The notes under the pieces: generated by a model
Told to the model about the DNA's origin: nothing
The model's input: only the letters and a program-made list of their open reading frames with translations
Database searches by the model: none
Translations under genes and position numbers: made by a program
Origin: Chthonomonadales bacterium
GTDB lineage: Bacteria > Armatimonadota > Chthonomonadetes > Chthonomonadales > CAJBBX01
Direction: 5' to 3'
Length of the DNA: 64,000 nucleotides
Assembly (NCBI GenBank): GCA_012517255.1
Contig: JAAYVH010000044.1
Location: forward strand, 2,295-66,294
In this document: piece by piece, positions 4,180 to 48,364 of the stretch
How the letters are laid out: each line of letters begins with the position of its first letter
Numbering within the stretch: position 1 is the stretch's first letter

Positions 4180-4226
4180 GCATGACGAACCCCGTCTGGG
4201 CGGGATGAGTGGTCAGCCGAAAGAGG

Positions 4227-6177: not shown

Positions 6178-6180
6178 CGC

Positions 6181-8173: not shown

Positions 8174-8234
8174 GGGCGTCTATGGCAGTGAGCCGCCATG
8201 CGTAGGCGCGGCGCTAACCCCTGGACGGGGCGCG

Positions 8235-8369
8235 CTAGACCGTAATGCGATGCCGACCCTTGAGACGCCGTGCCTTGAGCACGCTGCGTCCATCTTTGGT
8301 GGCCATTCGTTTCAGAAAGCCGTGAACCCGCTTCCTCCTGCGGTTCTTCGGCTGATACGTGCGCTTCAC
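8235..8369 (-). CDS. rpmH: 50S ribosomal protein L34 (absent from the ORF track because it is under 60 aa)
   Basis: Hand translation of the minus strand from the GTG at 8369 to the TAG at 8237-8235 gives (M)[43 protein letters not shown] (44 aa), a canonical L34. A GGAGGA RBS lies upstream. Confidence 0.85.
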
Positions 8370-8401
8370 TCTATTGAATCCTCCGCTAGCAGTGCGCAGA
8401 G

Positions 8402-8407
8402 ATTATA
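8402..8407 (-). promoter_or_regulatory. Perfect TATAAT -10 hexamer upstream of rpmH
   Basis: The minus strand reads TATAAT at 8407-8402, about 33 nt upstream of the rpmH GTG. No convincing -35 was identified. Confidence 0.3.
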
Positions 8408-8522
8408 GCACAGGGGCATGCGACAAACGGTGCCGCTTGCGAACGTTACGCAGGTAGGCAGGATGCTGCGGCTCGCCGGGCGAACTACGCGACGGCATGT
8501 CAACCGGGAGGGATCATCTGCC

Positions 8523-9512
8523 ATGAACATAGCTCCTCTGGTATTGGGAATGGTCCTGAACTGGGCAGCGGATCCCTGGCTCACGATCCAGCCGGGCCAC
8601 GGGCCAGCCGCAGGCAAACGTGTCGTGCTCGTGAGCGGCGACGAGGAGTACCGCTCCGAGGAGATGCTGCCGCAGCTCGCGCGCATACTGGCGCGGCAGG
8701 GATTCTCGTGCGTGGTGCTCTTTGCCGTCGACCCGCAGGACGGCGCTGTGTGCCCCAATGTCACCGACAACATCCCGGGGCTCCACCATCTGCGCTCGGC
8801 CGATCTGTTGATCCTGTTCACGCGTTTCCGCAATCTCCCTGACGATCAGATGCGGCATCTTGCGGCGTATGTGGAGAGCGGCAAACCGATCATAGGCCTC
8901 CGGACCGCGACTCATGCGTTCAAGCTCTCCGAGGGGGCGTTTCGTCGTTTCTCCTGGGACTCCGCGGAGCCGCAGTGGGAGGGCGGATTCGGCAGACGCG
9001 TCCTCGGCGAGACATGGATCAGCCATCACGGCATTCACGGCAAAGAAGGCACGCGCGGCGTGCCTGCGCCCGGACAGACAGCGCATCCCATCCTGCGGGG
9101 CATCAAGCCTGGCAGTCTGTTCAGTCCCACCGACGTCTACACGGTGCGCCTGCCGCTGACCGGCGATGCTGTCCCGCTCGTGCTGGGGGAAGTCACCGAG
9201 ACCATGGACCCGGGTTCCGCACCCGTGGCGGCGAAGAACGATCCCATGATGCCCGTCGCGTGGATCCGCTCGTACCGGGGCGAGTCGGGCAAGACGGCGC
9301 GCGTGTTCACGTGCACGATGGCCTCCGCTCAGGACCTCGTCCACGAAGGCAATCGCCGATTGCTGGTCCATGCGGGGCTGTGGGCTGTTGGGCTCGAGGA
9401 TCGGATCCGCGAGGGGCTCGATGTCTCGCTGGCAGGCAGATACTCGCCGTCGCCGTTCGGCTTTCGCGACCATGCAGCATGGAAGCCCGGCAAGACGCCC
9501 GCCGCATGGTGA
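8523..9512 (+). CDS. ThuA-like (class I glutamine-amidotransferase-like fold) protein
   Basis: ORF track 8418..9512, with the start trimmed to the ATG at 8523 (MNIAPL...). The pattern GKRVVLVSGDEEYRSEE...ADLLILFTRF...GKPIIGLRTATHAF resembles ThuA-domain proteins. Assigned by eye. Confidence 0.55.
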   Translation: MNIAPLVLGMVLNWAADPWLTIQPGHGPAAGKRVVLVSGDEEYRSEEMLPQLARILARQGFSCVVLFAVDPQDGAVCPNVTDNIPGLHHLRSADLLILFTRFRNLPDDQMRHLAAYVESGKPIIGLRTATHAFKLSEGAFRRFSWDSAEPQWEGGFGRRVLGETWISHHGIHGKEGTRGVPAPGQTAHPILRGIKPGSLFSPTDVYTVRLPLTGDAVPLVLGEVTETMDPGSAPVAAKNDPMMPVAWIRSYRGESGKTARVFTCTMASAQDLVHEGNRRLLVHAGLWAVGLEDRIREGLDVSLAGRYSPSPFGFRDHAAWKPGKTPAAW

Positions 9513-13574: not shown

Positions 13575-14159
13575 GTGCATGGCGTGAAGGCGCAGCACGC
13601 GGCAGACGGTCAACCTGAACAGACCGTCTCCGACAAGGAGCTGATGATTCGATGCCGGGCGGGGGATCGCCTCGCGCTCGAACGGCTCCTGACGCCCTAC
13701 GAGAAGCCGCTCTACCATCTTTGCCTCGGCATCCTACGCAATGCCGCCGACGCCGAGGATGCGGTGCAGGAGACCTTCCTGCGGGCTATGCGCGGATTGG
13801 CCGGATTTCGAGGCGAAGCCTCAGTCCGAACCTGGTTACAGAGGATCGCGGTGAACGTGTGCATCGAATGGAAACGCTCTCGCAAGCCGACGGCGCCCAT
13901 GGAGGCGGCCGAGCGAATGGCCAGCACGAGCCCGGATCTTGAGGAGACCACGATCCGCCATCGGCTCGCGCTCGATGCCCTCGGGGTCCTGACCGAAGCG
14001 CAGCGCGCCGCGCTGATCCTCAAAGACGTGCAGGGCCTGAGCGTGGAAGAGATCGCGGCCACCATGAGCTGGAATGCGAAGAAGGTCGAAAACGAGCTCT
14101 ACCGGGCGAGGAAGGCGTTGGCCGTGTGGCGAGCCAGGACCATCGAGGCGGAGGGCTGA
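13575..14159 (+). CDS. ECF-type RNA polymerase sigma factor (sigma-70 family)
   Basis: ORF track 13575..14159 (194 aa). Region 2 (LYHLCLGILRNAADAEDAVQETFLRA) and region 4 HTH (LSVEEIAATMSWNAKKVENELYRARKAL). Confidence 0.85.
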   Translation: MHGVKAQHAADGQPEQTVSDKELMIRCRAGDRLALERLLTPYEKPLYHLCLGILRNAADAEDAVQETFLRAMRGLAGFRGEASVRTWLQRIAVNVCIEWKRSRKPTAPMEAAERMASTSPDLEETTIRHRLALDALGVLTEAQRAALILKDVQGLSVEEIAATMSWNAKKVENELYRARKALAVWRARTIEAEG

Positions 14160-14160
14160 C

Positions 14161-15315
14161 ATGGCAGAGACAGAGCCCCTGACTCCCGGTGAGATTGCCG
14201 ACATACTGGCCGGTCTGGAGGACGCGCCGGTGCCCGAGCGAATGGCGCGGCGCGCAGTGAACCGCTGGATCGAGGAGTCGCGCCGCGAGCGTCCGCGGGG
14301 CCGATGGGCAACCGTGCTGAGCTTCCCCGGACTCCGACCGGCGCTGGCCCTGGCAGCCGCAGCGGCGCTGGTGGTGGTGATCCGCGGTCGCCTCGGCGAC
14401 GAGGCGGCTCCGCCCATACAAACCCCAAAGGCAGCCGAACGCGCTGAAAGGGCGGACGCGCCCACTCTACAGAACACCACGGCGCAGAAGGCGCAAGGCG
14501 AGAAGCGTGAGGCGAGAGGCAAGCGGCTAGAGGAGAGGGCTGAGGCGAAGGGGGCAGCCGGTCCGGGACGAGCGGCCACCGCCGGAAGCGCGCCTGCTCC
14601 GCCTGCCGCCGGTTTCGCCGACAGGCCGGCGGCGCCGTTAGCTGAGCGGGATGTTGCGCCGCCTGCACGGAAGGTGCAGGCTCCCGAGTCGGCCCCTGTG
14701 CCTGCGGTGAGCGAGAGAATGGCGCTCAGGGCAGCCCGGACGCCGGAAGCCCCAAGCGCTGACGTTGCCTATCTCAATCGTACCGAACCGCTCAGCCGCG
14801 ATCTCGTCAAGGACTCCTCCGTGGGCGACGCGCGTCTCCTGCAGAGGATCACACTGGCCGAGGACGAGATCGCTCTGGCGGATCTCGCCGGCAAGATCGG
14901 CGCAACCACGGGCGTCGCCATCGTTCTATCGGAGGCAATCGCCACCGAGCCCCTGGCGGTCCATTGCGAGGATAGGCCGTTGCGCGAGGTGATGCGCCAG
15001 ATGGGACGCGCGCTGGGCATCCGCTGGGAGCTGTCACATCAGGGCGACGCAATCCGCTATGCCGCACGACCGATCGCCGAAGCCGAGGAGACGCGCGCCT
15101 CGGACGATTCCGCCGCCCGATCGGCGCCGGCGGGTCTCGGCGGGGGAATGATGCGCGCGGGCCGGGCCCCGGCGGCCATGCAGGCCGACAGCAGTAAGAG
15201 ACGCGACGTCGAAACACGCAACATCATAGGCTCGCCCGAACGCGTCCGGGCTCTGCGTCAGGGGGTCGCGCCTCCGGACGCCGTACAGACCGAAGGTTGG
15301 ATCATCGTTCGATAG
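14161..15315 (+). CDS. Putative membrane-spanning anti-sigma factor
   Basis: ORF track 14074..15315, with the start trimmed to the ATG at 14161, 1 nt after the sigma-factor stop. Short cytoplasmic N-terminus, one TM segment (ALALAAAAALVVVI), an Ala/Pro-rich linker and a folded C-terminal domain. Function inferred from position only. Confidence 0.5.
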   Translation: MAETEPLTPGEIADILAGLEDAPVPERMARRAVNRWIEESRRERPRGRWATVLSFPGLRPALALAAAAALVVVIRGRLGDEAAPPIQTPKAAERAERADAPTLQNTTAQKAQGEKREARGKRLEERAEAKGAAGPGRAATAGSAPAPPAAGFADRPAAPLAERDVAPPARKVQAPESAPVPAVSERMALRAARTPEAPSADVAYLNRTEPLSRDLVKDSSVGDARLLQRITLAEDEIALADLAGKIGATTGVAIVLSEAIATEPLAVHCEDRPLREVMRQMGRALGIRWELSHQGDAIRYAARPIAEAEETRASDDSAARSAPAGLGGGMMRAGRAPAAMQADSSKRRDVETRNIIGSPERVRALRQGVAPPDAVQTEGWIIVR

Positions 15316-34880: not shown

Positions 34881-35477
34881 TCAGTGCGTGTGGCCCTCGT
34901 GCCCCTCGCCGGGACCGTGGTCATGGCCTGCGTGGTCGCCCTGCCCCTTGTCCATCTCGGTGCCCTTGAGCAGGGGATCGAGCAGGGGCTCATCGGTCAG
35001 CTTCTCGACCTTCAGGACCTCGATCTCAAATCGCAGCGTCGCGTTCGGCGGGATCTTGCCGTCCTCCGATCCCTTCTCGCCATAGGCGAGTTTGGGCGGA
35101 ACAATGAGGCGCCGTTTGCCGCCTTCATGAACGCCCTGCAGCCCGATATCCCAGCCGGGCATGACCATACCGCCACCGAAGAGGAACTTCAGCGGCTGGC
35201 CTTTGTCGCGGCTGGAATCGACCTTCTTGTTGCCATCCACCAGGTACACGTCGTAATGGACGGTCACCATATCGCCGGGCTCGGCGAGACGTCCCGTGCC
35301 GGCACGCAGCTCGACGATCTCGGGCTTCTCAGCCGGCTCGGCCTTCTGGGCGCTGGCGCCATGGTCGTGCCCATCGCCTGCAGGGCGCTGCTCCGACTCG
35401 GGTTTCGGAATGAGCGCAGCGATGACAAGGGCAAGGATGACGATGCCTATGACGGCTCCGATGCTCTTGAGGGCCAT
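34881..35477 (-). CDS. Membrane-anchored FKBP-type peptidyl-prolyl cis-trans isomerase with His-rich segments
   Basis: ORF track 34881..35477 (198 aa). N-terminal TM (IGAVIGIVILALVIAALI). FKBP core GDMVTVHYDVYL...GMVMPGWDIGLQGVHEGGKRRLIVPPKLAYG. His-rich tail GDHAGHDHGPGEGHEGHTH. Confidence 0.8.
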   Translation of the reverse strand: MALKSIGAVIGIVILALVIAALIPKPESEQRPAGDGHDHGASAQKAEPAEKPEIVELRAGTGRLAEPGDMVTVHYDVYLVDGNKKVDSSRDKGQPLKFLFGGGMVMPGWDIGLQGVHEGGKRRLIVPPKLAYGEKGSEDGKIPPNATLRFEIEVLKVEKLTDEPLLDPLLKGTEMDKGQGDHAGHDHGPGEGHEGHTH

Positions 35478-35685
35478 GTTCTCCAGTCCGTTGCGATGGT
35501 ATTGCGCGTCGGGCGGGCGCTGTGCGGCGTGCGTAATGCTACCCCATCCCGTCCATCAGCGATACGGATGTCCTGGCCGGTGCGGGTTCCGCATGGTCTC
35601 GAAGCAACGGAAGCGGCAGTAAGCATCGAGGGGCGCGACGTGCGCCGCGCCCCTCGATGCCAGTCTGTCTGGTTGTTCGCGTCGT

Positions 35686-35943
35686 CTACTTGTTCTTCAG
35701 CGGGCAGTTGGGGTTGGGGCCGCTGCCATCCCGCAGCCTGAGACCGTTGCCTCTCCCCTGTCCCTGCCGGAGCTGTCGGCCCATGCCGCTCCCGTCGCGG
35801 AGCCTCTGCTGAATGCGCTGGCCTGTGCCGTTGCACTGCCCGTTGCCGTAGCCGCCGCCACGTCCCTGCGCAAATGCGGGTCCGCCGATCAGAGCAGCGC
35901 CCAGCACACCCGCCGCAACCATGGTCCAAATCCGATTCTTCAT
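35686..35943 (-). CDS. Small secreted Gly/Arg-rich protein with an internal RLRDGSG repeat
   Basis: ORF track 35686..36009, with the ATG at 35943 after a GAAAGGAAAGAGGA RBS. Signal peptide MKNRIWTMVAAGVLGAALIGGPAFA. Mature region of about 60 aa with two Cys and RLRDGSG twice. Confidence 0.4.
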   Translation of the reverse strand: MKNRIWTMVAAGVLGAALIGGPAFAQGRGGGYGNGQCNGTGQRIQQRLRDGSGMGRQLRQGQGRGNGLRLRDGSGPNPNCPLKNK

Positions 35944-36202
35944 TGTCCTCTTTCCTTTCTTCTGGCTGTAGTCGCCGTATTCTGACCTCAGGACGACGCC
36001 GGCAGGCATCGGTTCCCCGACGTTGCCACGTTCGCGGGAATGACGATCGTGGGCTGGCGGCGATTGGTAGGGGCACGTTTTAGCGTGCCCCCTTCACGGC
36101 TGCCCGTCGTCCTGTCGCGGCATGCGCGACCGTAGGCCGCGCGAGCCGAACAGAACAGTCCCGGCCCTTCAGGCCGAACAGCCCGCTATAGGGATGAACA
36201 TC

Positions 36203-36362
36203 GCCCGCCTTGATTTCGACACGGCGCTTCGCGCCGGCTCAATCACCGGCGGGCTACGTGCGCGCCCCTACGGAGTGCCAGAGCGCGCGGTCCGTGGCGA
36301 GCGACGATCCGCCCACGTCATCGCGAGCGAAGCGACGCGATCCCGAACAGTCAGGGCCGATC
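36203..36362. repeat. Composite repeat copy (modules A+B)
   Basis: 36203-36306 matches 37008-37111, and 36263-36362 matches 36581-36680. The two modules overlap on CGCCCCTACGG. Confidence 0.8.
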
Positions 36363-36559
36363 AGGATAGTAGCGGCAATCGCCTCGTCGTCCTGCCGCGG
36401 CTCGCGCGGCTGTCGTAGGGGCGTATCAACCGGACGACCGACGGGGCGATCAGATGATGGGAGGTCACAACCGGCTGGAACGCCCTTCGCCGACGAATGG
36501 CGAGATCACAGGATGACCTGGGCGAACCAACCGCGCGCTGCGGCGTTCCCCTTCATCGA

Positions 36560-36680
36560 CGTTCCGGTCGGCGGTTGATTCGCCCCTACGGGCCTCCGGA
36601 TCGCGCGGTCCGTGCCGAGCGACGCTCCGCCCACGTCATCGCGAGCAAAGCGACGCGATCCCGAACAGTCAGGGCCGATC
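36560..36680. repeat. Composite repeat copy (modules E+B)
   Basis: 36560-36590 (CGTTCCGGTCGGCGGTTGATTCGCCCCTACG) recurs at 36867-36897. 36581-36680 is the second copy of module B. Confidence 0.8.
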
Positions 36681-36720
36681 CGCGTATCGGCATCGCCAGA
36701 CGTGACGGCCATAGGCGCTC

Positions 36721-36750
36721 GGGATTGCCGCGCTTCGCTCGCAATGACGT
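36721..36750. repeat. Module C copy 1 (GGGATTGCCGCGCTTCGCTCGCAATGACGT)
   Basis: 30-mer repeated at 36966-36995 with one mismatch. Confidence 0.8.
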
Positions 36751-36866
36751 GTGGAGGCAGCGAGACGAAGCGGCCACCTTACGGCCGAAGGCCGTGTAGC
36801 AGAGGGTTCACCCCACGCGAGAACACAACGTTGAGCGCTGCCCGATGCCGCGTTCCTCGTGGCGGT

Positions 36867-36897
36867 CGTTCCGGTCGGCGGTTGGTTCGCCCCTACG
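36867..36897. repeat. Module E copy 2
   Basis: CGTTCCGGTCGGCGGTTGGTTCGCCCCTACG has one mismatch to 36560-36590. Confidence 0.8.
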
Positions 36898-36965
36898 AGT
36901 TGCCGCTACGCGGTCGCACCGGCGTCCTTGGTAGGGGCAACGCGGAACCCGACGGACTAACCTTC

Positions 36966-36995
36966 GGGATTGCCACGCTTCGCTCGCAATGACGT
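36966..36995. repeat. Module C copy 2
   Basis: GGGATTGCCACGCTTCGCTCGCAATGACGT has one mismatch to 36721-36750. Confidence 0.8.
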
Positions 36996-37007
36996 ATCGG
37001 CGTCGCG

Positions 37008-37111
37008 GCCCGCCTTGATTTCGACACGGCGCTTCGCGCCGGCTCAATCACCGGCGGGCTACGTGCGCGCCCCTACGGAGTGCCAGAGCGCGCTCTCCGT
37101 GGCAAACGACG
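37008..37111. repeat. Module A copy 2
   Basis: The first 86 nt (37008-37093) are identical to 36203-36288, and the next ~18 nt are similar. Confidence 0.85.
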
Positions 37112-37170
37112 TTCCCTCCTTCGCTGGAACACTGGTCGGGCAACAACGGAATGGCCGACGGCGTAGTGTT

Positions 37171-37256
37171 AAGCACGCGCGCACGCGCGAGCATAGCCAG
37201 CTGTCCACGGATAGTTTGTCACTACAGCGTAAAGCACCCGCGCACGCGCGAGCATA
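37171..37256. repeat. Pair of 25-bp direct repeats just upstream of the dioxygenase gene
   Basis: AAGCACGCGCGCACGCGCGAGCATA (37171-37195) and AAGCACCCGCGCACGCGCGAGCATA (37232-37256) differ at one position and are 61 nt apart start to start. The second copy ends 18 nt before the GTG at 37275, next to the GGAAAGGAG RBS. Confidence 0.7.
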
Positions 37257-37274
37257 AGGAAAGGAGCGATAACC

Positions 37275-38057
37275 GTGAACCCCTATCCGCTCACCGACGA
37301 GCACATTGCCTTCTATCGCGATAACGGGTTTGTGCAGTTGTTCGACGTCCTCAGCCCCGCCGAGTTGCAGCAGGCGCGCGAAGCGCTCGAGGATGCCAAT
37401 CAGCTCGTGCTGGATGCGAGCCATCACACCAGCAAGTTGAACCCTGAATACGAGAAGGTCTTCGTCCAGAAGGTCAACCTGTGGCGCGTTCACGACGGCA
37501 TGCGGGAGTACGTGCTCTCGTCCAAGCTGGCGGACATCGCACGGCGGTTGGCCGGATTCGAAGCCGTGCGTCTGTGGCACGATCATGCGCTGATCAAGAT
37601 GCCGGGCGACAGCAAGGAATCTCCGTGGCACCAGGATCTCCCCTACTGGCCGATGAACGAGCCCGGCGCCCTTTCGTGCTGGATGGCGCTGGACGACGTC
37701 GACGTGGCGAACGGCTGCATGCAGTTCGTGCCGAAGTCGCACACCTGGGGCATCTTCGAGCCGATCAAGCTGGTAGACGCCCAGGACCTGTTCAGTTTCG
37801 TGCCGGATCCCGAGACCAAGGACTTCACGCCCTTCGTCGCACGCATGCCGGCGGGAAGCTGCACGTTCCATGACGGGCGCACCTTCCACTATGCCGGGCC
37901 CAACACCACCGACAGGCCGCGGCGAGCCATCATCACCATCTATATGGCCGACGGTACAACCTACAACGGCAACCCGCACGTGGTGACCAATGGCCTGGAG
38001 CTCGTTCCGGGAGAGCCCTTCACCCACGAGTCATTCCCCGTGCTGTCTCGCGCGTAG
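37275..38057 (+). CDS. Phytanoyl-CoA dioxygenase (PhyH) family Fe(II)/2-oxoglutarate dioxygenase
   Basis: ORF track 37275..38057 (260 aa, GTG start). HxD iron motif (PWHQDLPYWP) and a distal His (GRTFHYAGPN). The N-terminal LTDEHIAFYRDNGFV is typical of the family. Confidence 0.8.
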   Translation: MNPYPLTDEHIAFYRDNGFVQLFDVLSPAELQQAREALEDANQLVLDASHHTSKLNPEYEKVFVQKVNLWRVHDGMREYVLSSKLADIARRLAGFEAVRLWHDHALIKMPGDSKESPWHQDLPYWPMNEPGALSCWMALDDVDVANGCMQFVPKSHTWGIFEPIKLVDAQDLFSFVPDPETKDFTPFVARMPAGSCTFHDGRTFHYAGPNTTDRPRRAIITIYMADGTTYNGNPHVVTNGLELVPGEPFTHESFPVLSRA

Positions 38058-38096
38058 CCGGGGCTGCTATCCCCCGCCGTGTCCCCTACAATGCGG

Positions 38097-38130
38097 CCCG
38101 ACGCTGTGTTCTTGAGCACAGACCGTCGGG
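38097..38130 (+). terminator. Imperfect hairpin downstream of the dioxygenase gene
   Basis: CCCGACGCTGTG-ttcttgag-CACAGaCCGTCGGG, with one bulge, 40 nt after the stop at 38057. No U-tract. Confidence 0.3.
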
Positions 38131-38326
38131 TCGCAACCACGACTCCGATCCTGTCCGGTTGACTGCGGCCATGCAACGGCGAAAAAAGTGAAAAATATCT
38201 CAATCTCTTGAAGGATACGCGGGCAGCCGCGTGGAATGATAACGGCGCAAGGCATCGCGCCGGCGCTGCGGCCCGTCTGTGCGGCTCAGTCCGGTCGCCG
38301 AGACCCCACAGTGCGAGGAGGAGCCC

Positions 38327-39361
38327 ATGGCTCACAGCAGCACAAAGAAGAAGGTTCGGGGGCACGCCCTGGTCCTGCTTGCCGCCACCCTCGGGCTTGT
38401 TGGCCCGCTCATGCTGAGCGAAGCCCAACGCAAGCCGCGGCCGCCGCAGTATCCGATGACTCTGTTTGCGGACGCGCAGCCCGACGACTACCTCGATGAT
38501 GCCATGTGTGCCGGGTGCCATGCAGAAATAGCGGCGGACTTTGGCCGCAGCTACCATGCCGCCCACGGCAAGGACCCCAAGCTGCCGCCGGAGAGGCGAG
38601 GATGCCAGTCGTGTCATGGTCCCGGCAAGAAGCACGTCGAGAACCTGGCGGACCTCCCCAAGGCCCGCGAGGCCGTGGTCCGCTACACCGCCATCAAGCC
38701 GGCACAGAGCAGCGCCGTGTGCATGCGTTGTCACGGCGGCACGATGCATACGGCCCAGTGGCAGCGCACAGAGCACGCGCGGGCGGGTCTGGGATGCGTC
38801 AGTTGCCACACGGTCCACCACGGACCGGGATCGGCGTTGCCGGCCGAGACGAAGGCCCGCGCCGACAGCATCGCGACGGCGCTCGCGCCCGCATCGGTGC
38901 CGACAGCATCGCCGGTGCGCCACCTGAAGGCCGAGGAAGCCTCGCTATGCGGCGCATGCCATCGGCGCGAGGCGGGCGAGTTTCGCAGGAACTTCCATCA
39001 TCCGGTGCCCGAGGGCCGCATGATCTGCAGCGACTGCCACGAGGTTCATCCGACGAAGGCGACCCCGCGCAAGAAGACCGCGATCAAGAGCGCATGCGTG
39101 CGATGCCATGCGGAGATGGCCGGTCCCTTCCGCTACGAGCATGAACCCGTGGCCGGCTGGACCGGCGACGGCTGCGTCGAGTGTCATCGCCCGCATGGAT
39201 CGCACAATCCGGGGCTGTTGAACTCGTTTTCCCGCGGCCTCTGCGCCCAGTGCCATACCGATATGACCACGACCCACTACCCGGGTCAGACGTGCTGGAA
39301 CTCCGGTTGTCATGAGGCCATCCACGGCTCCAATCGCGACCGGACCCTGCTCACGAGGTGA
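38327..39361 (+). CDS. Secreted decaheme c-type cytochrome (MtrA/MtoA/PioA/DmsE-like)
   Basis: ORF track 38279..39361, with the ATG at 38327 after a GAGGAGGAG RBS. Signal peptide (ALVLLAATLGLVGPLMLSEA). Nine CxxCH motifs (CAGCH, CQSCH, CMRCH, CVSCH, CGACH, CSDCH, CVRCH, CVECH, CAQCH) plus CWNSGCH. Paired-CXXCH signature GPFRYEHEPV...CVECHRPHGSHNPGLL and the ending CHEAIHGSN. Confidence 0.85.
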   Translation: MAHSSTKKKVRGHALVLLAATLGLVGPLMLSEAQRKPRPPQYPMTLFADAQPDDYLDDAMCAGCHAEIAADFGRSYHAAHGKDPKLPPERRGCQSCHGPGKKHVENLADLPKAREAVVRYTAIKPAQSSAVCMRCHGGTMHTAQWQRTEHARAGLGCVSCHTVHHGPGSALPAETKARADSIATALAPASVPTASPVRHLKAEEASLCGACHRREAGEFRRNFHHPVPEGRMICSDCHEVHPTKATPRKKTAIKSACVRCHAEMAGPFRYEHEPVAGWTGDGCVECHRPHGSHNPGLLNSFSRGLCAQCHTDMTTTHYPGQTCWNSGCHEAIHGSNRDRTLLTR

Positions 39362-41067
39362 CCGCCATGAGCATGCAATTCATTCGGGCACATGCCTGCG
39401 GCGCCGGCCGTGATCCTTTGAGGCTGCTCATGCTGCGCGCCGCGATCATGCTGGCAACGGCAATGCTTGCTGCCATGTGCGCGGCGCAGGATGCCGGTTC
39501 GGAAGAAGAGCCGGAGGAAGAAGAGGCGAAAGAGGCTGCTCCCCGGATCGTGCAACTAGAGCTGGGAGCGGGGGGATGGCGGACCAGCGGGAACGCGGCC
39601 AAGTTGCGCCAGTATGCATCGCCGGCTGGCGGCGTGTACGTGCGCGAGCTGACATTGCAGCCCGCGGGATTCCCCTATGATGGCTACGCCCTGCTGCGAC
39701 TGAGCGGGGTCGGGTCCGACGATGCCGCCAACGGCCTCGAGCTCGGGTTCAACGGCGACCGCACGAGAATCTGGTACCACGGCGCACGCAACCGCTTCTA
39801 CGAGCACACGTCGCTGGTTATCCCCGAGAGCAACAGGAAGACCGAGGGGATCACCGTGCGGCTGTTGCCGCATCCTGACTTCGGTCTCACGTGGAGCTAT
39901 AGCGTGGACAATCAGGATCGCTACTTCGAAGCTCCGCGCGAGGCGACGCGCAGGCGCATCCGTCAGTGGGAGATGTCGGCCAACGGCAAGGTCGGCGACG
40001 GCAATCTGGGCGTCACGGTGTCGGACTTCCGCTTCTACGACCGGATGCTGACACTGCCGGACACGAGCGTCCAGAGCTGGAGCGTGAACGGACTCTGGTC
40101 GCAGAGCCCCGAGGCAGACCTCTACGGCTCTGTCACCGGCCGAACCATCGAGCGGTCCGGCGCAGGGGTCGGGCGCGTCAACGAGATCGCCGCCGGCGGA
40201 ACCCTCGACATGGGAGCGCTCGGCGATCTCTCCGTCAGAGGCGAGACGCAGCATATGAACTGGCCCGGTATGGAGAGCTCGTATGTCACGGACCGGCGCA
40301 TGGCCGAGACCATGCTCGTCTCGCGGCTGGGCTCCATGGGCATGCGGCTGAAGTGGCAGTATCACGAGGCCGAGCGGGTGCGCGCGGGCGGCGACGATCT
40401 CGATGTGCCCAAGTGGACAGTTGTCAGCGGGCGCATGGCTGGCCGCATAGGCAAGCTTCTGCGGCTGACCCTGAAAGGCAGCAGCGAGCGCATGTGGCAG
40501 CGGCCACAGATGGTGATGACCGATACCCGATCGGCGCTCTGGGACGCGCGCGACGGGTTGGAGATCAAGCTGGACGGCTCCGGGGAGAGCCTCCAGGGCT
40601 ACGCCGCATGGAAGTTCCAGCGACGCGGCAACACGCCGCGCGGCACCAATGTCACCTGCGGGACGGCGACGGCGGGGCTGACGGTGAATCTCGCCCCCAA
40701 TCTCGAGATGTTCGGCGAAGTCGCCTACGAGACGTGGCGAGGCCGCTCCGAGGCGGTGGCCTACCCGACGCTGGGCAACTTCATGCCGGACAGCCGCATG
40801 ACGGCGCTCGGCCTGAGCTATGCGCTGACCCAGAGCACGTTCTTCTGGGCAGGATATACCGACACTGCCACCAACAACGACAATCCCCTCTTGCTGCGCG
40901 ACGGCAACACGCGCAGCCATTACCTCACGCTCATGGTGCGGCATCGTTTCGCATCCGGCGAAGAGGTGTCGCTATCTGTTGCGCCATGGACATATCGCGA
41001 CGAAGTGGACCCCACGATGAACCTGACTGCCACTACCGTGGTCATGTCGGCGAGAGGCAGGTTCTAG
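39358..41067 (+). CDS. Putative outer-membrane beta-barrel partner of the decaheme (MtrB/MtoB/PioB-like by position)
   Basis: ORF track 39358..41067 (GTG overlapping the upstream TGA as GTGA). Alternative starts are 39367, 39373 and 39430. Signal peptide MLRAAIMLATAMLAAMCAAQ, then an acidic run SEEEPEEEEAKE. Alternating-residue strands throughout. C-terminus ...TTVVMSARGRF (terminal Phe). No heme motifs. Confidence 0.6.
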   Translation: MTAMSMQFIRAHACGAGRDPLRLLMLRAAIMLATAMLAAMCAAQDAGSEEEPEEEEAKEAAPRIVQLELGAGGWRTSGNAAKLRQYASPAGGVYVRELTLQPAGFPYDGYALLRLSGVGSDDAANGLELGFNGDRTRIWYHGARNRFYEHTSLVIPESNRKTEGITVRLLPHPDFGLTWSYSVDNQDRYFEAPREATRRRIRQWEMSANGKVGDGNLGVTVSDFRFYDRMLTLPDTSVQSWSVNGLWSQSPEADLYGSVTGRTIERSGAGVGRVNEIAAGGTLDMGALGDLSVRGETQHMNWPGMESSYVTDRRMAETMLVSRLGSMGMRLKWQYHEAERVRAGGDDLDVPKWTVVSGRMAGRIGKLLRLTLKGSSERMWQRPQMVMTDTRSALWDARDGLEIKLDGSGESLQGYAAWKFQRRGNTPRGTNVTCGTATAGLTVNLAPNLEMFGEVAYETWRGRSEAVAYPTLGNFMPDSRMTALGLSYALTQSTFFWAGYTDTATNNDNPLLLRDGNTRSHYLTLMVRHRFASGEEVSLSVAPWTYRDEVDPTMNLTATTVVMSARGRF

Positions 41068-41129
41068 GCCATGCGTCGTGATCCAATGTCGTTCCCTGCA
41101 ATGCAAACCCAAATCTCAGGAGAGCATCC

Positions 41130-42647
41130 ATGATGAAACGACCGTGGTTTGCGCTGATCGCGGGCGGCCTTGTGCCGTTCGTAGCTACGCTGATCATTGC
41201 CGGATGTGGAGGTTCCGGCGGTCCGTTGAAGCCGCCTCCCACCGGCGACATTGGCCCATCGGCGGAGTTCATCCAGCTTCTGCCGGCAGCCCAGCGCACT
41301 GCGACGTACGTCGGCGGCACGCCGTGCGTCAACTGCCATGAGACCGGCGTGGGCGGCGCGCCCGTGGTGGACTTCGCCAAGTGGGAGGCCACCAAGCATG
41401 CCCAGGTAGGGCTCGGTTGCGAGCAATGCCACGGGCCGGCCAGCGCCCATGTCGCCGCCCCGTCCGATGACAACATCCTCGCGCATCCCAACGTCACGCG
41501 ATCGGTTGTGTGCGGCCAGTGCCATGGCCCCATGTACGCGGAGTACAAGGCGTCTCCCCATGCCGAGGCCGTCGAGGAGGTGATAGAGGACGTTCAGGCC
41601 GCGACCAATACCGGCACAGGACGGTGTCTGCGGTGCCACAGCGCCTCGCTGCGAGCCAGGATGATCGACGCGCCCATCACGGCGGGCAAAACGGCGAATG
41701 AGATAGATGCGGGGCTCACTGCCCTGACTCTCGACCAGCTCAAGGCCGCGGCCGCATCAACCCACGAGACGGCTACGTGCGTCAACTGCCATTCGCCCAT
41801 GCAAGAGACTGGCAAGCCGATGCTGTCGGGCAAGCTCGCCCTGCTGCGTCACAAGACCCACAACACCGACACGTCGGTTGTGGGCGTTCCCGGGGCAGCG
41901 CTGAAGGACACGCAGGTTTTCGACCATCAGTGCGGCGCATGCCATCTGGCCGGAACATCCTCGACCCCGAAGACCGACGATGCCACGCTGAACGCCTCAA
42001 CGTCTCGCGTGAACTTCCACTACAGCCCGCAGTACTACATGCTTGCCGGCATGGGCGGAGTGGAGATCACGCCGCCTGTCGTGCGCAACTCGGCTCACTT
42101 CTCGACGGCGGAACAGTGCGTGAAGTGCCATATGCCGAACTCGAAGCACACCATGACCGTCGCTTTCGATCAGAGCTGTTCACCTTGCCACACGCCAGCC
42201 GACGCGGCCGCACGCTACGCCATTCGCGGCAACACGGAGCTGCAGCTCTATGCTCTCCGCACACGCATGGAGAACTGGGCGCGGGCTACCACCTTCACCA
42301 GCCCGAACATCAGCAACGATCCCGACATGTGGATGTACACCGCCGACATCACCGCGCTCGGCAAGACACCGCCTGCTCAGGCTCAGGTGCCGATCGAGAT
42401 CAAGCGAGCCCGCCACAACTACTGGTTCATCCTGCGCGACGGCAGCTTCGGCGTTCATAACGCGCCCTACACGCGTCACCTGCTGAATGCGGCGAACAAT
42501 CAGCTTGCCGCGCTGGGCAGGGCCGCGGCGCCTGTGCCGCTGAAGAACGTTTCGAAGGCCGAGATGGCGCGCATCAGCGCGATCCTCGATGCCGACCGGA
42601 AACGCGCGCGGCGCGTGGATATGGAGGAGCTGCTCCGCGAGCCTTAG
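41130..42647 (+). CDS. Lipoprotein octaheme c-type cytochrome (candidate surface-exposed partner)
   Basis: ORF track 41130..42647 (505 aa). CAGGAGAG RBS. Lipobox LIIAG-C. Eight CxxCH motifs (CVNCH, CEQCH, CGQCH, CLRCH, CVNCH, CGACH, CVKCH, CSPCH). Helical C-terminal region RARHNYWFILRDGSFGVHNAPYTRHLL. Confidence 0.8.
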   Translation: MMKRPWFALIAGGLVPFVATLIIAGCGGSGGPLKPPPTGDIGPSAEFIQLLPAAQRTATYVGGTPCVNCHETGVGGAPVVDFAKWEATKHAQVGLGCEQCHGPASAHVAAPSDDNILAHPNVTRSVVCGQCHGPMYAEYKASPHAEAVEEVIEDVQAATNTGTGRCLRCHSASLRARMIDAPITAGKTANEIDAGLTALTLDQLKAAAASTHETATCVNCHSPMQETGKPMLSGKLALLRHKTHNTDTSVVGVPGAALKDTQVFDHQCGACHLAGTSSTPKTDDATLNASTSRVNFHYSPQYYMLAGMGGVEITPPVVRNSAHFSTAEQCVKCHMPNSKHTMTVAFDQSCSPCHTPADAAARYAIRGNTELQLYALRTRMENWARATTFTSPNISNDPDMWMYTADITALGKTPPAQAQVPIEIKRARHNYWFILRDGSFGVHNAPYTRHLLNAANNQLAALGRAAAPVPLKNVSKAEMARISAILDADRKRARRVDMEELLREP

Positions 42648-42706
42648 GGGCAATCACTCAGGCTGCGCCCACCCTCGGGCGCAGCCTGAACCTCGCTTGG
42701 GACCGT

Positions 42707-43873
42707 CTACGGCTTGCCGGATCCTGAGCGCTTGCCTCCAGGATTGACCAGCTTGCCGCCATCCTGAGACCGAGCGCCTCGATTCTGCGCGCCGCCTCGC
42801 TCTTGATAGGGGCCGGGATTCACAACGTTGCCCATACGATCGCCTCGCAGTCCCGGGGTGTTGGCGGCGCGATCGTCGGGCCTTCCCCGCGTTCCTGGCC
42901 TGCTGCTGCGGAACGTCAGCCAGGCTTCGCCGTCGGGCCCTGCCTTGCCGTTGGCGTAGTACGGCGAATCTGGGTCCACGTTTCGGTCAATGTTCTCAAG
43001 GATTCCCTTGTGGTCGGGCTCGGTGCGGATCGTTTCGGTGTAGCTGCCGGTTCGCCCCTCGCGTGAACGAGTCACGCTCAGACGGTAGAGGCCGGCGTCT
43101 GTGCGGTGAACGGTCTGACTCTCGGTAGAGCCGTCTGCGTCACGATCCACTACGTGGCGGGAAACCAGACTGTCGAAGGTTCCGTTCCCGTCGGTGTCGC
43201 GCCGGACCTCAGTCACTTCCTCATGCTCGCCATTGGGTGCGTCATAGCGAACGTGGAGGCTCGCCGTGGTCCCATCCTGACTGATGGTTACCGAGCGCGA
43301 GTATATCTTGCCGTCCTCAGTGCGGGTCCATGTGGATGTGTTGGGTCCATCGCCGTCTTCGCCGTCACCGGCCAGTCCGCCCACATCCCGGGGATCAGGC
43401 GCACCGAACCGATTCCGATAGCGGTCGGCGTCGCCTCCCGTACGGCCCTGTTTGGGCAGGATGGTGTCCAGGCCGTCGGACTGGCCGCGCTGCCTGCCGA
43501 ACGCTCGGGGATCAGGCTTGGTCGAGCCTGCACCGACCGTGTCCCTGGCGCCGCCCTGACCGAGCTGGCCGAACTTGCCCGTTTCAGGCCGGTTTGCCCC
43601 GCCCCGTGGTCCGCCAAGAGCATCTCTGGCCGCCGCGCCCTCTTTGCCGAGAGCGGCTCCGCCAGCCGTCTTGCCCAACCGATCTTGCTTGAGAGCCGCG
43701 CGGTTGTCCCTGGACGGCAGAGAGCCGACATTGCCGGTCTTGCCGCCCTGAACCGCCGGCGGTTTCGTCTCCTTCTTATCCTGTGAGACCTTGGGATCAT
43801 CAGCCAGAGCGCCTGCCGTCAGCACCAGCGCCGCAAGCAGCGATGCGCTCGCACGTCCGATATCGTGTCGCAT
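42707..43873 (-). CDS. Secreted low-complexity Gly/Arg/Lys-rich protein with DxDxDG-type (calcium-loop-like) motifs
   Basis: ORF track 42707..43873 (388 aa). Signal peptide (ASASLLAALVLTAGALA). Long disordered G/R/K/P-rich N- and C-terminal regions. Central folded part containing DTDGNGTFD and DRDADGSTE. Confidence 0.5.
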   Translation of the reverse strand: MRHDIGRASASLLAALVLTAGALADDPKVSQDKKETKPPAVQGGKTGNVGSLPSRDNRAALKQDRLGKTAGGAALGKEGAAARDALGGPRGGANRPETGKFGQLGQGGARDTVGAGSTKPDPRAFGRQRGQSDGLDTILPKQGRTGGDADRYRNRFGAPDPRDVGGLAGDGEDGDGPNTSTWTRTEDGKIYSRSVTISQDGTTASLHVRYDAPNGEHEEVTEVRRDTDGNGTFDSLVSRHVVDRDADGSTESQTVHRTDAGLYRLSVTRSREGRTGSYTETIRTEPDHKGILENIDRNVDPDSPYYANGKAGPDGEAWLTFRSSRPGTRGRPDDRAANTPGLRGDRMGNVVNPGPYQERGGAQNRGARSQDGGKLVNPGGKRSGSGKP

Positions 43874-45789: not shown

Positions 45790-47508
45790 TCAGCCGAGCT
45801 TCGGCCAGCCGCCGGGCGTTCCCATGGCGCGCTCAAACACGTGGCCGACCCGCAGGATGGCGTCCTCGCGATAGAGCTGGCCTGTGAACTCGATCATGAT
45901 CGGTTTGCGACCGTCCATGCCGGCGCGCGTGATGAGCGTCGGATGCCCGGTAAGGTTGGTGAGAACGAGCGTCGCATAGGGCGGCGTTACGTAGCAGTCG
46001 AAGTCCGCCATGGCCGCCGCCATCTCTCGTTGAAGCTGAGCTCGAAGCTGCATCATGGCTATGTAGTCCACGCCGGCAACCGTCGTGCCGACGCGGAAGA
46101 TGTTGGGCCAGTTGTTGGGGCCTTGCTGAGCCAGGTCGGCCAGCTTGCCTTGCGCGATCAGCGAGGCGAACGAAGCGGCGCCCTCCACATCAATCACGTT
46201 GGTCAGTTCGGCATAGGCTCCCGCCATGCTGGGAAGCCGGATGGGCTTCAGTTCCGCTCCGGCTTTGCGCAGCACGTCGAGCGCACGGTCGTAGACCGCC
46301 CTGGCCGCTTCGTCCTTCTGAGCGGCAAACCCGGCCTCATCCAGACCGATCTTCAGACCCGCGAGGCCTTTCGCCGGTTCCCACGAGAATGGCACGGGCC
46401 GCACGGTCATGTCCGCGCCGTCTGGCCCTGCGATGGCATGGAGCACGAGCGCGCAGTCTTCGACGGAGCGCGTGATGGGCCCGATCTTGTCCATGGTCCA
46501 CGAAAGGGCCATGGCGCCCGTGCGCGGCACGCGGCCGTAGGTGGGGCGCAGACCGGTCGTGCCGTTGCGCACGCACGGGCTGACAATGCTTCCGAGCGTC
46601 TCGGTGCCAATGGAAAAGCCGACAAGCCCTGCTGCAGTGGCCGCTCCGGGCCCGGCAGAGGAGCCGCTCGATCCCTGGGTCAGATCCCACGGGCAACGCG
46701 TCATGCCGCGAAACCACACGTCGCCCATGGCCAGCTCACCGAGGCTGAGTTTCGCCACAAGCACCGCGCCGGCCCGCTCGAGCCGTTGCACAACAGTGGC
46801 ATCGGTCGGCGGAATCTGATCCTCATAGGGCTTCGCGCCGAATGTCGTTCGGATGCCCTTTGTGAACAGCAGATCCTTGGCGCCCCACGGCACGCCATGC
46901 AGCGGGCCTCGCCATCGCCCGGCGGCTATCTCGCGATCGGCCTGTTCGGCCTGACGCATGGCCAGCTCCTCCGTGAGCGTAACGACGCACAGAAGCTGCG
47001 GGTCGAACATTCGGAGCCGCTGAAGGTACATCTGCGTGAGCTCGACGCTGGTTACCCTGCGCGCGCGGAGCATGGCCGACAGCACGCTCACGGGCTGAAA
47101 GGCCAGGCTGTCGGGATCAATGGCATCGGCCGGCGCCACGGGCTTTGTCGGTCGAAACGCCGACCTGCCGGAAGGCAGAGGCACGCCGGGCACCCACGGG
47201 TCAAACCGGATCGCAGGCTCCGCGCCCTGCGGGATCGCAGCCATGCGAACCTGACGCATGGCGCGTCGCATCTCGCGTACGCTCGGCAGCATCAGCGCGC
47301 GTTCTGCCTCGGAGTAGGCCCTATCCGTAACCCTCAGCGCGGCTCCCAGATCCGCTTCCGTTATCGCGTCGGCATCTTGCGCTGTTGTCGGTTCCGATGC
47401 CAGCGTCACCACGCATGCCGCTGCAGCGGCCCTGAGCGCCGCACGCCTGCCGACGCGGCCGCCAGTCGGGCTATCGCCACGGTCCATCCCGCCCCTCTCC
47501 CCATTCAT
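45790..47508 (-). CDS. Amidase-signature family enzyme with a Tat-type signal peptide
   Basis: ORF track 45790..47508 (572 aa). Twin-arginine region GRRAALRAAAAA. Amidase signature GSSGSSAGPGAATAAG. The alternative start at 47487 has a better GGAG spacing. Confidence 0.8.
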   Translation of the reverse strand: MNGERGGMDRGDSPTGGRVGRRAALRAAAAACVVTLASEPTTAQDADAITEADLGAALRVTDRAYSEAERALMLPSVREMRRAMRQVRMAAIPQGAEPAIRFDPWVPGVPLPSGRSAFRPTKPVAPADAIDPDSLAFQPVSVLSAMLRARRVTSVELTQMYLQRLRMFDPQLLCVVTLTEELAMRQAEQADREIAAGRWRGPLHGVPWGAKDLLFTKGIRTTFGAKPYEDQIPPTDATVVQRLERAGAVLVAKLSLGELAMGDVWFRGMTRCPWDLTQGSSGSSAGPGAATAAGLVGFSIGTETLGSIVSPCVRNGTTGLRPTYGRVPRTGAMALSWTMDKIGPITRSVEDCALVLHAIAGPDGADMTVRPVPFSWEPAKGLAGLKIGLDEAGFAAQKDEAARAVYDRALDVLRKAGAELKPIRLPSMAGAYAELTNVIDVEGAASFASLIAQGKLADLAQQGPNNWPNIFRVGTTVAGVDYIAMMQLRAQLQREMAAAMADFDCYVTPPYATLVLTNLTGHPTLITRAGMDGRKPIMIEFTGQLYREDAILRVGHVFERAMGTPGGWPKLG

Positions 47509-47521
47509 ATGCGTTGTCTTG

Positions 47522-47632
47522 CCTCAGCCTTCAGCCTTCACCCTTCACCCTTCGCCCTTCAGCCTTCAGCCTTCGCCCTTCAGCCTTCACCCTTCGCCCT
47601 TCACCCTTCAGCCTTCGCCCTTCGCCCTTCAC
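47522..47632. repeat. Tandem heptanucleotide array, 15 x CCTTCNN (NN = AG, AC or GC) plus one degenerate unit
   Basis: Units fall at 47528, 47535, ... 47626 with strict 7-nt phasing: CCTTCAG x6, CCTTCAC x5, CCTTCGC x5 including boundaries as read. They are preceded by CCTCAG at 47522. The array fills the spacer between the stop at 47636 and the start at 47508, both of minus-strand genes. Confidence 0.9.
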
Positions 47633-47635
47633 CCC

Positions 47636-48364
47636 CTAACGCCTCTCAATGACGAGCTTCTGCGCGGCCATCGTGTAGCGAATCATCTCACCCGTGGCCT
47701 TCGACAGATGGAGTCGGGCCTGTATGGGAGCCACATCGCACACGACGCACTCCACCTTCTTGCCGCCGACGGTGATCGTTTCTGTGGTCGGCTGGGCCGC
47801 GAAGGTGATATCGAGACTGCGCATCATCTCCACCGCAAAGAGCGGCGCTTTGACCGTCTTTCCGGGCTGGATGTTCAGGGCGCGCGTTGCTATGGACATG
47901 AGCGTCATCACGTTGTTGATCGAGAGGAACTCCTTGCCGCTTATTGCGGCGTCACGGTTCATCGTCTGGCCGCCAGCCTGCGCCGTGATCTTCGCCTTGC
48001 CGCCTCCGAAAGAGCCGGTCAGTTTCTGGGCCTGGCCGTTGACGTCGGCATTCAGCGTCACCGCGGTCGGATGTCCGCTGTCGTTGACCGTGAAGGTTCC
48101 GTTCATCGTGAGGTTGACCTGCTGACCCTGAACCGGCAGAGCGAGCTTCAGGTTGTACTTCCAGTCGAAGAGCTGCTGCTTGCCGGATCCGGCACGAACG
48201 GCGGTGCAGGCGGCGTCCATGGCGCCAACCGACTTGCCGTCCATGGCGAATGACCACTTTTCGGTGTCGCCGACTTTGAATGCGAGGGGTTTCTGGGCCC
48301 ATGCCGGCGCTGAGCAAACGGCAAGCGCCATCACGGCCATCGGCATACGTCGCAGTGCGATCAT
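47636..48364 (-). CDS. Secreted hypothetical protein (beta-rich)
   Basis: ORF track 47636..48364 (242 aa). Signal peptide MIALRRMPMAVMALAVCSAPAWA. No recognisable motifs. Confidence 0.5.
   Translation of the reverse strand: MIALRRMPMAVMALAVCSAPAWAQKPLAFKVGDTEKWSFAMDGKSVGAMDAACTAVRAGSGKQQLFDWKYNLKLALPVQGQQVNLTMNGTFTVNDSGHPTAVTLNADVNGQAQKLTGSFGGGKAKITAQAGGQTMNRDAAISGKEFLSINNVMTLMSIATRALNIQPGKTVKAPLFAVEMMRSLDITFAAQPTTETITVGGKKVECVVCDVAPIQARLHLSKATGEMIRYTMAAQKLVIERR

Follow-up and report, generated by a model that had tools for sequence, protein, structure and literature searches.

We analyzed a 64,000-nucleotide stretch of DNA (hereafter the window) from a Chthonomonadales bacterium of the phylum Armatimonadota (assembly GCA_012517255.1, contig JAAYVH010000044.1, positions 2,295 to 66,294) and found in it a three-gene operon that probably encodes an Mtr-type electron conduit across the outer membrane. 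According to this reading, to which we assign a probability of about 75%, an MtrA-like decaheme cytochrome (gene 1) would act as a wire inside an MtrB-like β-barrel (gene 2), with a lipoprotein cytochrome similar to OcwA and OmhA (gene 3) as the outer partner. The operon and its features, in window coordinates, are listed below.

38327-39361, + strand: gene 1, predicted MtrA/DmsE-type periplasmic decaheme c-type cytochrome, 344 amino acids (aa)
38327-38425, + strand: predicted Sec signal peptide of gene 1, residues 1-33, with a KKKVR n-region, a hydrophobic core and the cleavage site SEA↓Q
39293-39313, + strand: tenth heme site of gene 1, CWNSGCH (CX4CH), predicted exit heme, conserved as the last motif in homologs
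39358-41067, + strand: gene 2, predicted MtrB-like 26-strand outer-membrane β-barrel, 569 aa counted from GTG
39358-39489, + strand: signal peptide region of gene 2, with a hydrophobic helix at residues 20-44 of the AlphaFold2 (AF2) model, ...CAAQ↓DA
39550-41061, + strand: barrel proper of gene 2, residues 65-568, plug-less, from DSSP on the AF2 model
41130-42647, + strand: gene 3, octaheme lipoprotein cytochrome of the OcwA/OmhA (NrfA-related) group, 505 aa
41196-41207, + strand: lipobox of gene 3, I-A-G-C26, then Gly/Pro tether CGGSGGPLKPPP; Cys26 is invariant in aligned homologs

The original prediction, made from the sequence of the window without database searches, had placed three open reading frames (ORFs) at the gene positions listed above, on the + strand, and had read them as a porin-cytochrome module of the MtrAB/MtoAB/PioAB kind, possibly an uncharacterised variant in an unusual host. 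The ORFs are as it described them, and the module assignment is supported by the MtrB-like fold predicted for gene 2, by the relationship of gene 1 to MtrA and by the conserved synteny. The host belongs to the Chthonomonadales (Armatimonadota), and the outer cytochrome resembles OcwA and OmhA, not MtrC. Its readings of the single genes, namely the heme motifs of gene 1 and their grouping, the absence of a heme motif from gene 2 and its terminal ...ARGRF, the lipobox and eight CxxCH motifs of gene 3, and export signals on the proteins, also held up, the last of these as sequence features conserved in all three protein families.

The three proteins of the operon

The heme-binding motifs of gene 1 comprise nine of the CxxCH type (at residues 61, 93, 132, 157, 208, 234, 257, 283 and 306) and a tenth, CWNSGCH (CX4CH), at residue 323. 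The motifs are grouped 4+6 around an Ala/Pro-rich linker, and all 20 cysteines of the protein lie within them. Among the ORFs of at least 60 aa in the six frames of the window, gene 1 and gene 3 were the only ones with more than one CxxCH, and the heme-motif pattern is therefore not a product of chance. Ten heme sites and a signal-like N-terminus in a protein of about 300-350 aa agree with the decaheme family. The signal peptide was assigned by reading the sequence and by a hydrophobicity heuristic, and its hydrophobic core is kept in orthologs.

The best solved relative of gene 1 was MtrA (6r2q_A, E = 8.8e-27). Residues 31-172 and 201-325 of gene 1 aligned to MtrA residues 35-175 and 176-299, respectively, with heme motifs 1-9 colinear and the CX4CH motif following heme 9. 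Entry 6R2Q holds the structure of MtrCAB from Shewanella baltica, and 6R2Q_A is cited as the MtrA reference in a preprint; the molecule name printed for chain A is evidently a deposition quirk. Judged by this alignment, gene 1 is an MtrA homolog. Some homologs with about 50% identity to gene 1 carry the NCBI name "DmsE family decaheme c-type cytochrome". In Pfam and NCBIfam searches the halves of the protein were NrfB-like, and the model of the GSU2203 (OmcK) family, NF041028, gave 176.7 bits, below its cutoff of 325.

In total, 1533 relatives of gene 1 were found. Among the best 120 of them, nine CxxCH motifs were present in 119 and a CX4CH motif in 118, always in last position and with the consensus CWxxGCH. 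On these counts, the non-canonical tenth site is a hallmark of the gene 1 clade. In MtrA, heme 10 contacts MtrC (Edwards et al. 2020, PMC7198977), and by this analogy the CWxxGCH heme would be the exit heme of gene 1.

For gene 2, a word-indexed search returned 7 relatives. A profile search run exhaustively over 1.84 billion representatives returned 124, of which 81, mostly of about 550 aa, had E < 1e-30. An AF2 run with 8 close homologs reached a predicted local distance difference test score (pLDDT) of 50.5 and was replaced by a run with the 81 sequences (model m6045451c105f), which reached a pLDDT of 91.9 and a predicted template modelling (TM) score of 0.81. The model shows a signal helix and a short acidic linker, followed by 26 antiparallel strands that enclose no plug. 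A small helix lies within the β1-β2 loop, and strands β2-β4 are short. MtrB also has 26 strands, with the first four shorter than the others and a small capping helix in the β1-β2 loop (Edwards et al. 2020, PMC7198977), so that its capping helix and short N-terminal strands are reproduced in the gene 2 model. A Foldseek search of the PDB returned MtrB (6r2q_B) as the top match (E = 1.9e-11, query-normalised TM score 0.71, 10% identity). The remaining matches were mostly 22-strand TonB-dependent receptors, with TM scores of at most 0.51. Gene 2 is thus confidently predicted, on the basis of the model, to be a 26-strand plug-less barrel with an MtrB-like fold.

The original prediction had made itself depend on gene 2 being predicted as a transmembrane barrel, and here it came through. 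It had also called the barrel far shorter than MtrB, which is right with respect to length and wrong if taken to mean a smaller pore or fewer strands. Short extracellular loops account for a deficit of about 120 aa relative to MtrB (649 residues in the PDB chain), and all 26 strands are kept. In the model, strand connections average 8.8 aa on one face and 3.6 aa on the opposite face, and the would-be extracellular loops total 114 aa. As modelled, this asymmetry of long loops and short turns is the pattern of outer-membrane proteins.

Export signals and termini are also conserved in the barrel family. A strong N-terminal hydrophobic core was present in 72 of the 81 members and a terminal Phe in 76, and an AAQDA-type cleavage site is kept in close homologs of gene 2. 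Among the marks of MtrB-type barrels, gene 2 shows the predicted fold and the adjacency to a decaheme gene (9/9 loci, see below) and lacks a match to the sequence models.

Gene 3 contains 17 cysteines, 16 of them in its eight CxxCH motifs and one that serves as the predicted lipid anchor. In an alignment with 35 homologs at 40-82% identity, Cys26 of the lipobox was invariant (35/35) and was followed by GG.GGP; the eight heme motifs, eight non-motif His residues and one Met were invariant as well. Across 120 homologs, Cys-[GA]-G was found inside the first 50 aa in 119, and nearly all kept eight heme sites, in some cases with CX4CH replacing the first CxxCH. Judged from sequence, the conserved ligands would allow all hemes to be six-coordinate, and open-site hemes are also compatible with them.

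The hallmarks of MtrC, OmcA and UndA are ten or eleven hemes, a four-domain fold and a conserved CX8C disulfide. Gene 3 shares a lipoprotein signal with these proteins, and it has eight hemes and no Cys left for such a disulfide. The model for the MtrC/MtrF II-IV domain (PF22113) matched it partially (38.7 bits, cutoff 30). A profile of the gene 3 family found instead OcwA (6i5b_A, E = 1.2e-15) and OmhA (6qvm_A, E = 8.7e-14), with several colinear segments spread over the heme core and the C-terminal helical region, the "D.S.G(V/I)HN" motif of the latter among them. MccA, MtrA, octaheme nitrite reductase (ONR) and NrfA scored far more weakly. Going by these profile matches, the kin of gene 3 are the surface reductases OcwA and OmhA, not MtrC. 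OcwA (6I5B) is a nonaheme surface terminal reductase of Thermincola potens that is structurally related to NrfA, c554 and MccA and, according to the same study, has no relationship to MtrC, OmcA or UndA (PMC6703420). OmhA (6QVM) comes from the S-layer of Carboxydothermus ferrireducens (PMC9250108). The kinship does not extend to all details, since OcwA has 9 hemes and OmhA 11, whereas gene 3 has 8. Moreover, OcwA contains two penta-coordinate hemes with His-His motifs (PMC6703420), whereas gene 3 has no HH dipeptide.

As gene 3 has neither CxxCK nor any Cys beyond the heme motifs and the anchor, the Cys/Cu site of MccA and the Lys-ligated heme of NrfA are absent. With these features missing, and with scores far below those of OcwA and OmhA, an identity of gene 3 as an NrfA, ONR or MccA enzyme was ruled out.

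Conservation and distribution of the gene trio

Gene order was compared in nine loci: the window and the loci L001, L004-L008, L010 and L011. In all nine, a decaheme cytochrome gene of the 9+1 type lies directly upstream of the barrel gene, and wherever the contig continues, an eight-motif cytochrome gene comes next after the barrel. The flanks of the trio are unrelated between loci. Compared with the proteins of the window, the decahemes of the other loci were 45-69% identical, the barrels 23-65% and the octahemes 43-76%, making the barrel the fastest diverging component.

Gene 3 is 100% identical to an NCBI protein of a metagenome-assembled "Chthonomonadales bacterium", whereas almost no organism names were attached to the barrel relatives. 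Named homologs of gene 1 and gene 3 came from Chthonomonadales, Chthonomonadaceae, Chthonomonas, Fimbriimonas, Fimbriimonadaceae and from entries labelled "Armatimonadota/Armatimonadetes bacterium". The sole named homolog outside this list was from "bacterium HR17", which we take to be classified in the Armatimonadota as well. A scan of GTDB with peptide patterns specific for the close clade identified two loci, both in Chthonomonadales, a count that sets no bound on the taxonomic range.

One related Chthonomonadales genome carries the trio on contig JAANMX010000065.1 (L001/L002), where the intervals 844-8705 and 14076-14915 show its surroundings. On this contig the trio directly follows two GH127 β-L-arabinofuranosidase-like genes and an α-L-fucosidase gene, and a prepilin-type N_methyl/SBP_bac_10 protein is encoded downstream of it. 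Surroundings rich in glycan-degrading and pseudopilin genes, which the original prediction had pointed out for the window, therefore recur around the module.

A distant relative (P0114) was found on an 18.6-kb contig of JGI metagenome 3300056388. It is called as a single protein of 1054 aa that starts with a decaheme domain, the ten heme motifs of which end in CWQAGCH, and continues through a linker of about 90 aa into a barrel. The surrounding cluster also includes genes for a multiheme cytochrome (337 aa), a gene-3-like cytochrome (475 aa), a cytochrome c (220 aa) and a protein of 604 aa in which Cytochrome_C7 and Ni_hydr_CYTB domains are combined. By its domain content, the 604-aa protein could be an inner-membrane quinol dehydrogenase, and the locus may represent a complete pathway from the inner to the outer membrane.

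In the window, the trio is a self-contained operon. The upstream neighbour is a PhyH dioxygenase gene, and downstream, on the opposite strand, lie genes for a secreted protein without assigned function, a glycoside hydrolase of family GH43, an amidase and an Sde182-like protein. The ATG of gene 1 (38327) is preceded by a strong Shine-Dalgarno sequence (SD), GAGGAGGAG, 5 nt upstream, and gene 3 also has a strong SD. For gene 2, the original prediction had proposed a start on GTG 39358, overlapping the stop codon of gene 1 (GTGA). The overlap is real, but translation of gene 2 probably starts at the in-frame ATG 39367. This is because the ATG has an SD (GAGG at 39355-39358, spacing 8 nt), because no SD precedes the GTG, and because a homolog with 99% identity to gene 2 (P0001) is called from the equivalent ATG. 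With either start, the spacing between genes 1 and 2 is at most 5 nt. A scan of the region 35400-43000 against Rfam gave no match.

Proposed mechanism and alternatives

In an Mtr-type conduit built from the operon, gene 1 would be exported by the Sec system and lie along the lumen of gene 2, forming an insulated wire of ten hemes across the outer membrane in the same way as MtrA inside MtrB. The exit heme at the outer face would be the one on the C-terminal CWxxGCH site, and there gene 3, held on its Gly/Pro tether, would give or take electrons; the complex would contain 18 hemes in total. Electrons would be supplied by unlinked carriers of the periplasm or the inner membrane. Most likely, respiratory electrons of a saccharolytic host would pass in this way to extracellular acceptors, for which minerals of Fe(III) or Mn(IV), humics, particulate organic matter, electrodes and partner cells are candidates. 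Gene 3 is expected at the cell surface because of its kinship to OcwA and OmhA and because of its tether. Outward flow is favoured because the outer cytochrome is homologous to terminal reductases and because the gene context is heterotrophic.

Several observations weigh against this reading. The insertion of gene 1 into gene 2 is something that we infer from homology and from the predicted fold. The default orientation of lipoproteins in diderm bacteria is towards the periplasm. In the 64-kb window, no quinol dehydrogenase of the CymA/NapC/CbcL type was found, and neither were genes for cytochrome c maturation or further cytochromes. A scan detected no sigma-70-like promoter and no clear terminator at the operon, with promoter types of Armatimonadota lying outside the coverage of the tool. 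The fused decaheme-barrel protein P0114, known from one metagenomic contig, may be an assembly artefact and is taken as a hint.

Sequence models add to these reservations. The original prediction had named three kinds of models as a check, and the outcome was divided. For gene 1, Paired_CXXCH_1 scored 80 bits, and TIGR03508 for the DmsE-family decaheme narrowly missed its cutoff (184.6 vs 192.2 bits). Gene 2 had no match at E ≤ 1 in Pfam or NCBIfam, including the MtrB_PioB models PF11854 and TIGR03509. Across the 81 barrel relatives, PF11854 matched one (E = 4.3e-4), TIGR03509 one (15.5 bits, cutoff 240) and the GSU2204-family model NF041027 six (17-28 bits, cutoff 350), so that the links to the known MtrB superfamily are faint (15-28 bits) and confined to peripheral members of the family. 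In favour of a barrel family, the generic models Porin_4 and OMP_b-brl matched 15 and 7 of the 81 members, respectively. The amphipathicity of the gene 2 strands (1.69, compared with 1.33 ± 0.19 for shuffled sequence) was weakly positive and was not relied on.

Among the alternatives, the one that survives best keeps the architecture and reverses the flow. Electrons would then enter through the conduit from Fe(II), from reduced minerals or humics, from a cathode or from a partner cell, which has been proposed for MtoAB and PioAB. An Armatimonadota decaheme has been classed as MtoA-like and placed nearer to PioA/MtoA than to Shewanella MtrA (PMC9671151), and the gene order, A then B, is that of mtoAB and pioAB. 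MtoA and PioA do not form a function-specific clade, and the direction of flow is not readable from MtrA and MtrB sequences (Baker et al. 2022, PMC8805035). Against uptake, the known oxidising MtoAB and PioAB systems have no outer cytochrome, whereas the operon encodes one that is homologous to OcwA and OmhA. Genes for a high-potential iron-sulfur protein, MtoD, Cyc2 or carbon fixation were not found near the operon, and the context, with GH43, GH127 and fucosidase genes, is that of a saccharolytic heterotroph. We therefore consider uptake possible and not very likely. The question concerns direction only, and uptake would be compatible with the same structural model.

A second alternative places gene 3 on the inner side. 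Genes 1 and 2 would form a two-component conduit of the MtoAB/PioAB kind in which the wire itself contacts the outside. Gene 3, anchored in the inner leaflet of the outer membrane or in the inner membrane, would be a relay to gene 1 or an NrfA/MccA-like enzyme. The default topology of diderm lipoproteins, already mentioned, would fit this arrangement, as would the fact that MtoAB and PioAB need no outer cytochrome to work (PMC8805035). The NrfA-related superfamily, of which gene 3 is a member, consists mostly of periplasmic enzymes, and NrfB, which the halves of gene 1 resemble, is the electron donor to NrfA. Nevertheless, the closest solved relatives of gene 3 are the cell-surface proteins OcwA and OmhA, with NrfA, ONR and MccA much lower, and the sites of MccA- and NrfA-type enzymes are missing from it. 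Its gene lies strictly downstream of the barrel gene in every locus, and the tether behind the lipid-anchored Cys is long. Taken together, these points make a periplasmic gene 3 improbable in our view.

The last alternative dispenses with a conduit and assumes a periplasmic multiheme reductase of the NrfB-NrfA type, encoded in one operon with an unrelated general porin or substrate channel (gene 2). It would fit the failure of the MtrB/PioB models on gene 2 and the Porin_4 matches in its family, but is very hard to reconcile with 26 plug-less strands (general porins have 16-18), the gap in TM score between MtrB and all other solved barrels, the strict pairing of barrel and decaheme genes in all nine loci despite barrel identities of 23-65%, the faint matches of peripheral family members to the GSU2204 and MtrB/PioB models, and the apparent decaheme-barrel fusion.

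Relation to known conduits and neighbouring sequences

The system that the proposed conduit resembles most closely in its parts is MtrCAB of Shewanella, likewise a cluster of three genes for a periplasmic decaheme, a 26-strand barrel and a lipoprotein multiheme partner. There are several differences. The gene order is A-B-C here and C-A-B in MtrCAB. Gene 2 is about 10% identical to MtrB, is invisible to the MtrB_PioB models and has much shorter extracellular loops. Heme 10 is bound by CWxxGCH in gene 1, in contrast to CxxCH in MtrA. Gene 3 is an OcwA/OmhA-like protein with no spare Cys for the CX8C disulfide of MtrC, and the proposed complex would hold 18 hemes, compared with 20 in MtrCAB. The porin-cytochrome conduits of Geobacter (Pcc; OmaB/OmbB/OmcB) combine an octaheme periplasmic cytochrome with a smaller porin. 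An identity of the operon with Pcc was ruled out, as gene 1 is a decaheme homologous to MtrA and the barrel has 26 strands.

MtoAB of Sideroxydans and PioAB of Rhodopseudomonas share with the operon an MtrA-family decaheme and a barrel encoded in the order A-B. They serve Fe(II) oxidation or electron uptake, and differ in lacking an outer cytochrome and in coming with MtoD/CymA or PioC, for which no counterpart was found in this window. DmsEFAB of Shewanella, with its decaheme DmsE, barrel DmsF and extracellular lipoprotein reductase, provides an example of a non-MtrC partner on a core of the MtrAB type. Unlike in the operon, this partner is a molybdoenzyme, DmsAB, and no multiheme cytochrome. 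OcwA and OmhA, the closest solved relatives of gene 3, are cell-surface terminal reductases of the NrfA-related clade 3 and sit on monoderm cell walls or S-layers without a porin partner.

In Geobacter sulfurreducens, OmcK (GSU2203) and GSU2204 are distantly related to the families of genes 1 and 2, by scores far below the respective cutoffs of 325 and 350 bits. GSU2204 proteins contain a CXXCH motif and selenocysteine, whereas gene 2 has no heme motif. The GSU2204 family is described as an MtrB/PioB-family barrel (PMC13188914), and GSU2203 and GSU2204 were up-regulated with the iron oxides hematite and magnetite (PMC4070692). We note in passing that these two neighbouring genes look like an uncharacterised MtrAB-like pair.

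A precedent by description comes from Acidobacteriota and Verrucomicrobiota of peat, non-proteobacterial heterotrophs in which porin, MtrA-like and OcwA-like genes are syntenic. The components of these Mtr-like clusters, which come in four architectures, are 8-31% identical to characterised ones, and Armatimonadota are absent from the report (bioRxiv 10.64898/2026.05.27.727921, May 2026). Clusters of mtrCAB were found in three phyla only, Proteobacteria, Acidobacteria and Gemmatimonadetes, and the MtrAB core was described as conserved and its outer partner as modular (Baker et al. 2022, PMC8805035). The present locus agrees with this view and widens it. For Armatimonadota, our literature search found survey-level mentions only, namely one metagenome-assembled genome (MAG) with "MtoA" in a FeGenie-type survey (PMC9671151) and a Fimbriimonadales MAG with unspecified "iron reduction genes" (PMC13055281). 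The general concept of divergent Mtr-like clusters with OcwA-like cytochromes thus has precedent. Specific to this locus are the phylum, a barrel with trimmed loops that current hidden Markov models (HMMs) do not detect, the predicted CWxxGCH exit heme, and a fixed A-B-C trio with an eight-heme OcwA-like lipoprotein.

A conduit of this kind would give members of a poorly studied and mostly uncultured phylum a route to extracellular electron acceptors, and it bears on how these heterotrophs get rid of electrons in anoxic habitats. FeGenie-type surveys and the MtrB_PioB models miss the barrel and register only an "MtoA/DmsE-like" cytochrome. Because the marker models miss the barrel, the capacity of Armatimonadota for extracellular electron transfer is probably under-called. 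A new HMM could be built from the alignment of the 81 barrel sequences. The pairing of an MtrAB core with an outer cytochrome of the OcwA/OmhA type would support a modular evolution of conduits with an exchangeable outer partner (Baker et al. 2022), and it would link the electron-transfer toolkits of diderm and monoderm bacteria. So far, terminal reductases of the OcwA/OmhA type have been characterised only on Gram-positive cell surfaces. The compact, short-loop MtrB-like barrel and the CX4CH exit heme would also be attractive for structural work and engineering.

We tentatively consider, at a little less than even odds, that Armatimonadota, a phylum with a reputation for saccharolytic heterotrophs, carry their own phylum-wide class of outer-membrane conduit, defined by the HMM-missed barrel, the CWxxGCH exit heme and a terminal reductase of the OcwA/OmhA type. 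If this were true, many Armatimonadota would be unrecognised electroactive organisms. In that case, surface cytochromes of the OcwA type would represent an ancient module that does not depend on the kind of envelope and can serve either a diderm porin-cytochrome core or a monoderm cell-wall pathway.

Some further features of the window surround the operon. The intergenic region upstream of the PhyH gene (36100-37260) contains dense local repeat families. These include direct copies of about 100 nt with 91-95% identity (e.g. 36203-36310 and 37008-37115, or 36263-36362 and 36581-36680), inverted arms of 46-52 nt, and a 39-nt core that occurs twice in the window, where none is expected by chance. 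The repeats match no Rfam family and look like elements of the repetitive extragenic palindrome (REP) or miniature inverted-repeat transposable element (MITE) kind. Another repeat, at 47524-47634, is an array of about 16 copies of the heptanucleotide TCACCCT, which can alternatively be read as 5.3 copies of a 21-nt unit with 85-88% matches. It lies between the amidase gene (45790-47508, - strand) and the next gene (47636-48364, - strand).

Two genes on the - strand encode predicted secreted proteins of low complexity that are rich in Gly, Arg and Asp and match no Pfam family. The first (35686-36009, 107 aa) lies two genes upstream of the operon, and the second (42707-43873, 388 aa) directly downstream. 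The 388-aa gene also comes next after gene 3 in two contigs of the same lineage (L013 and L014).

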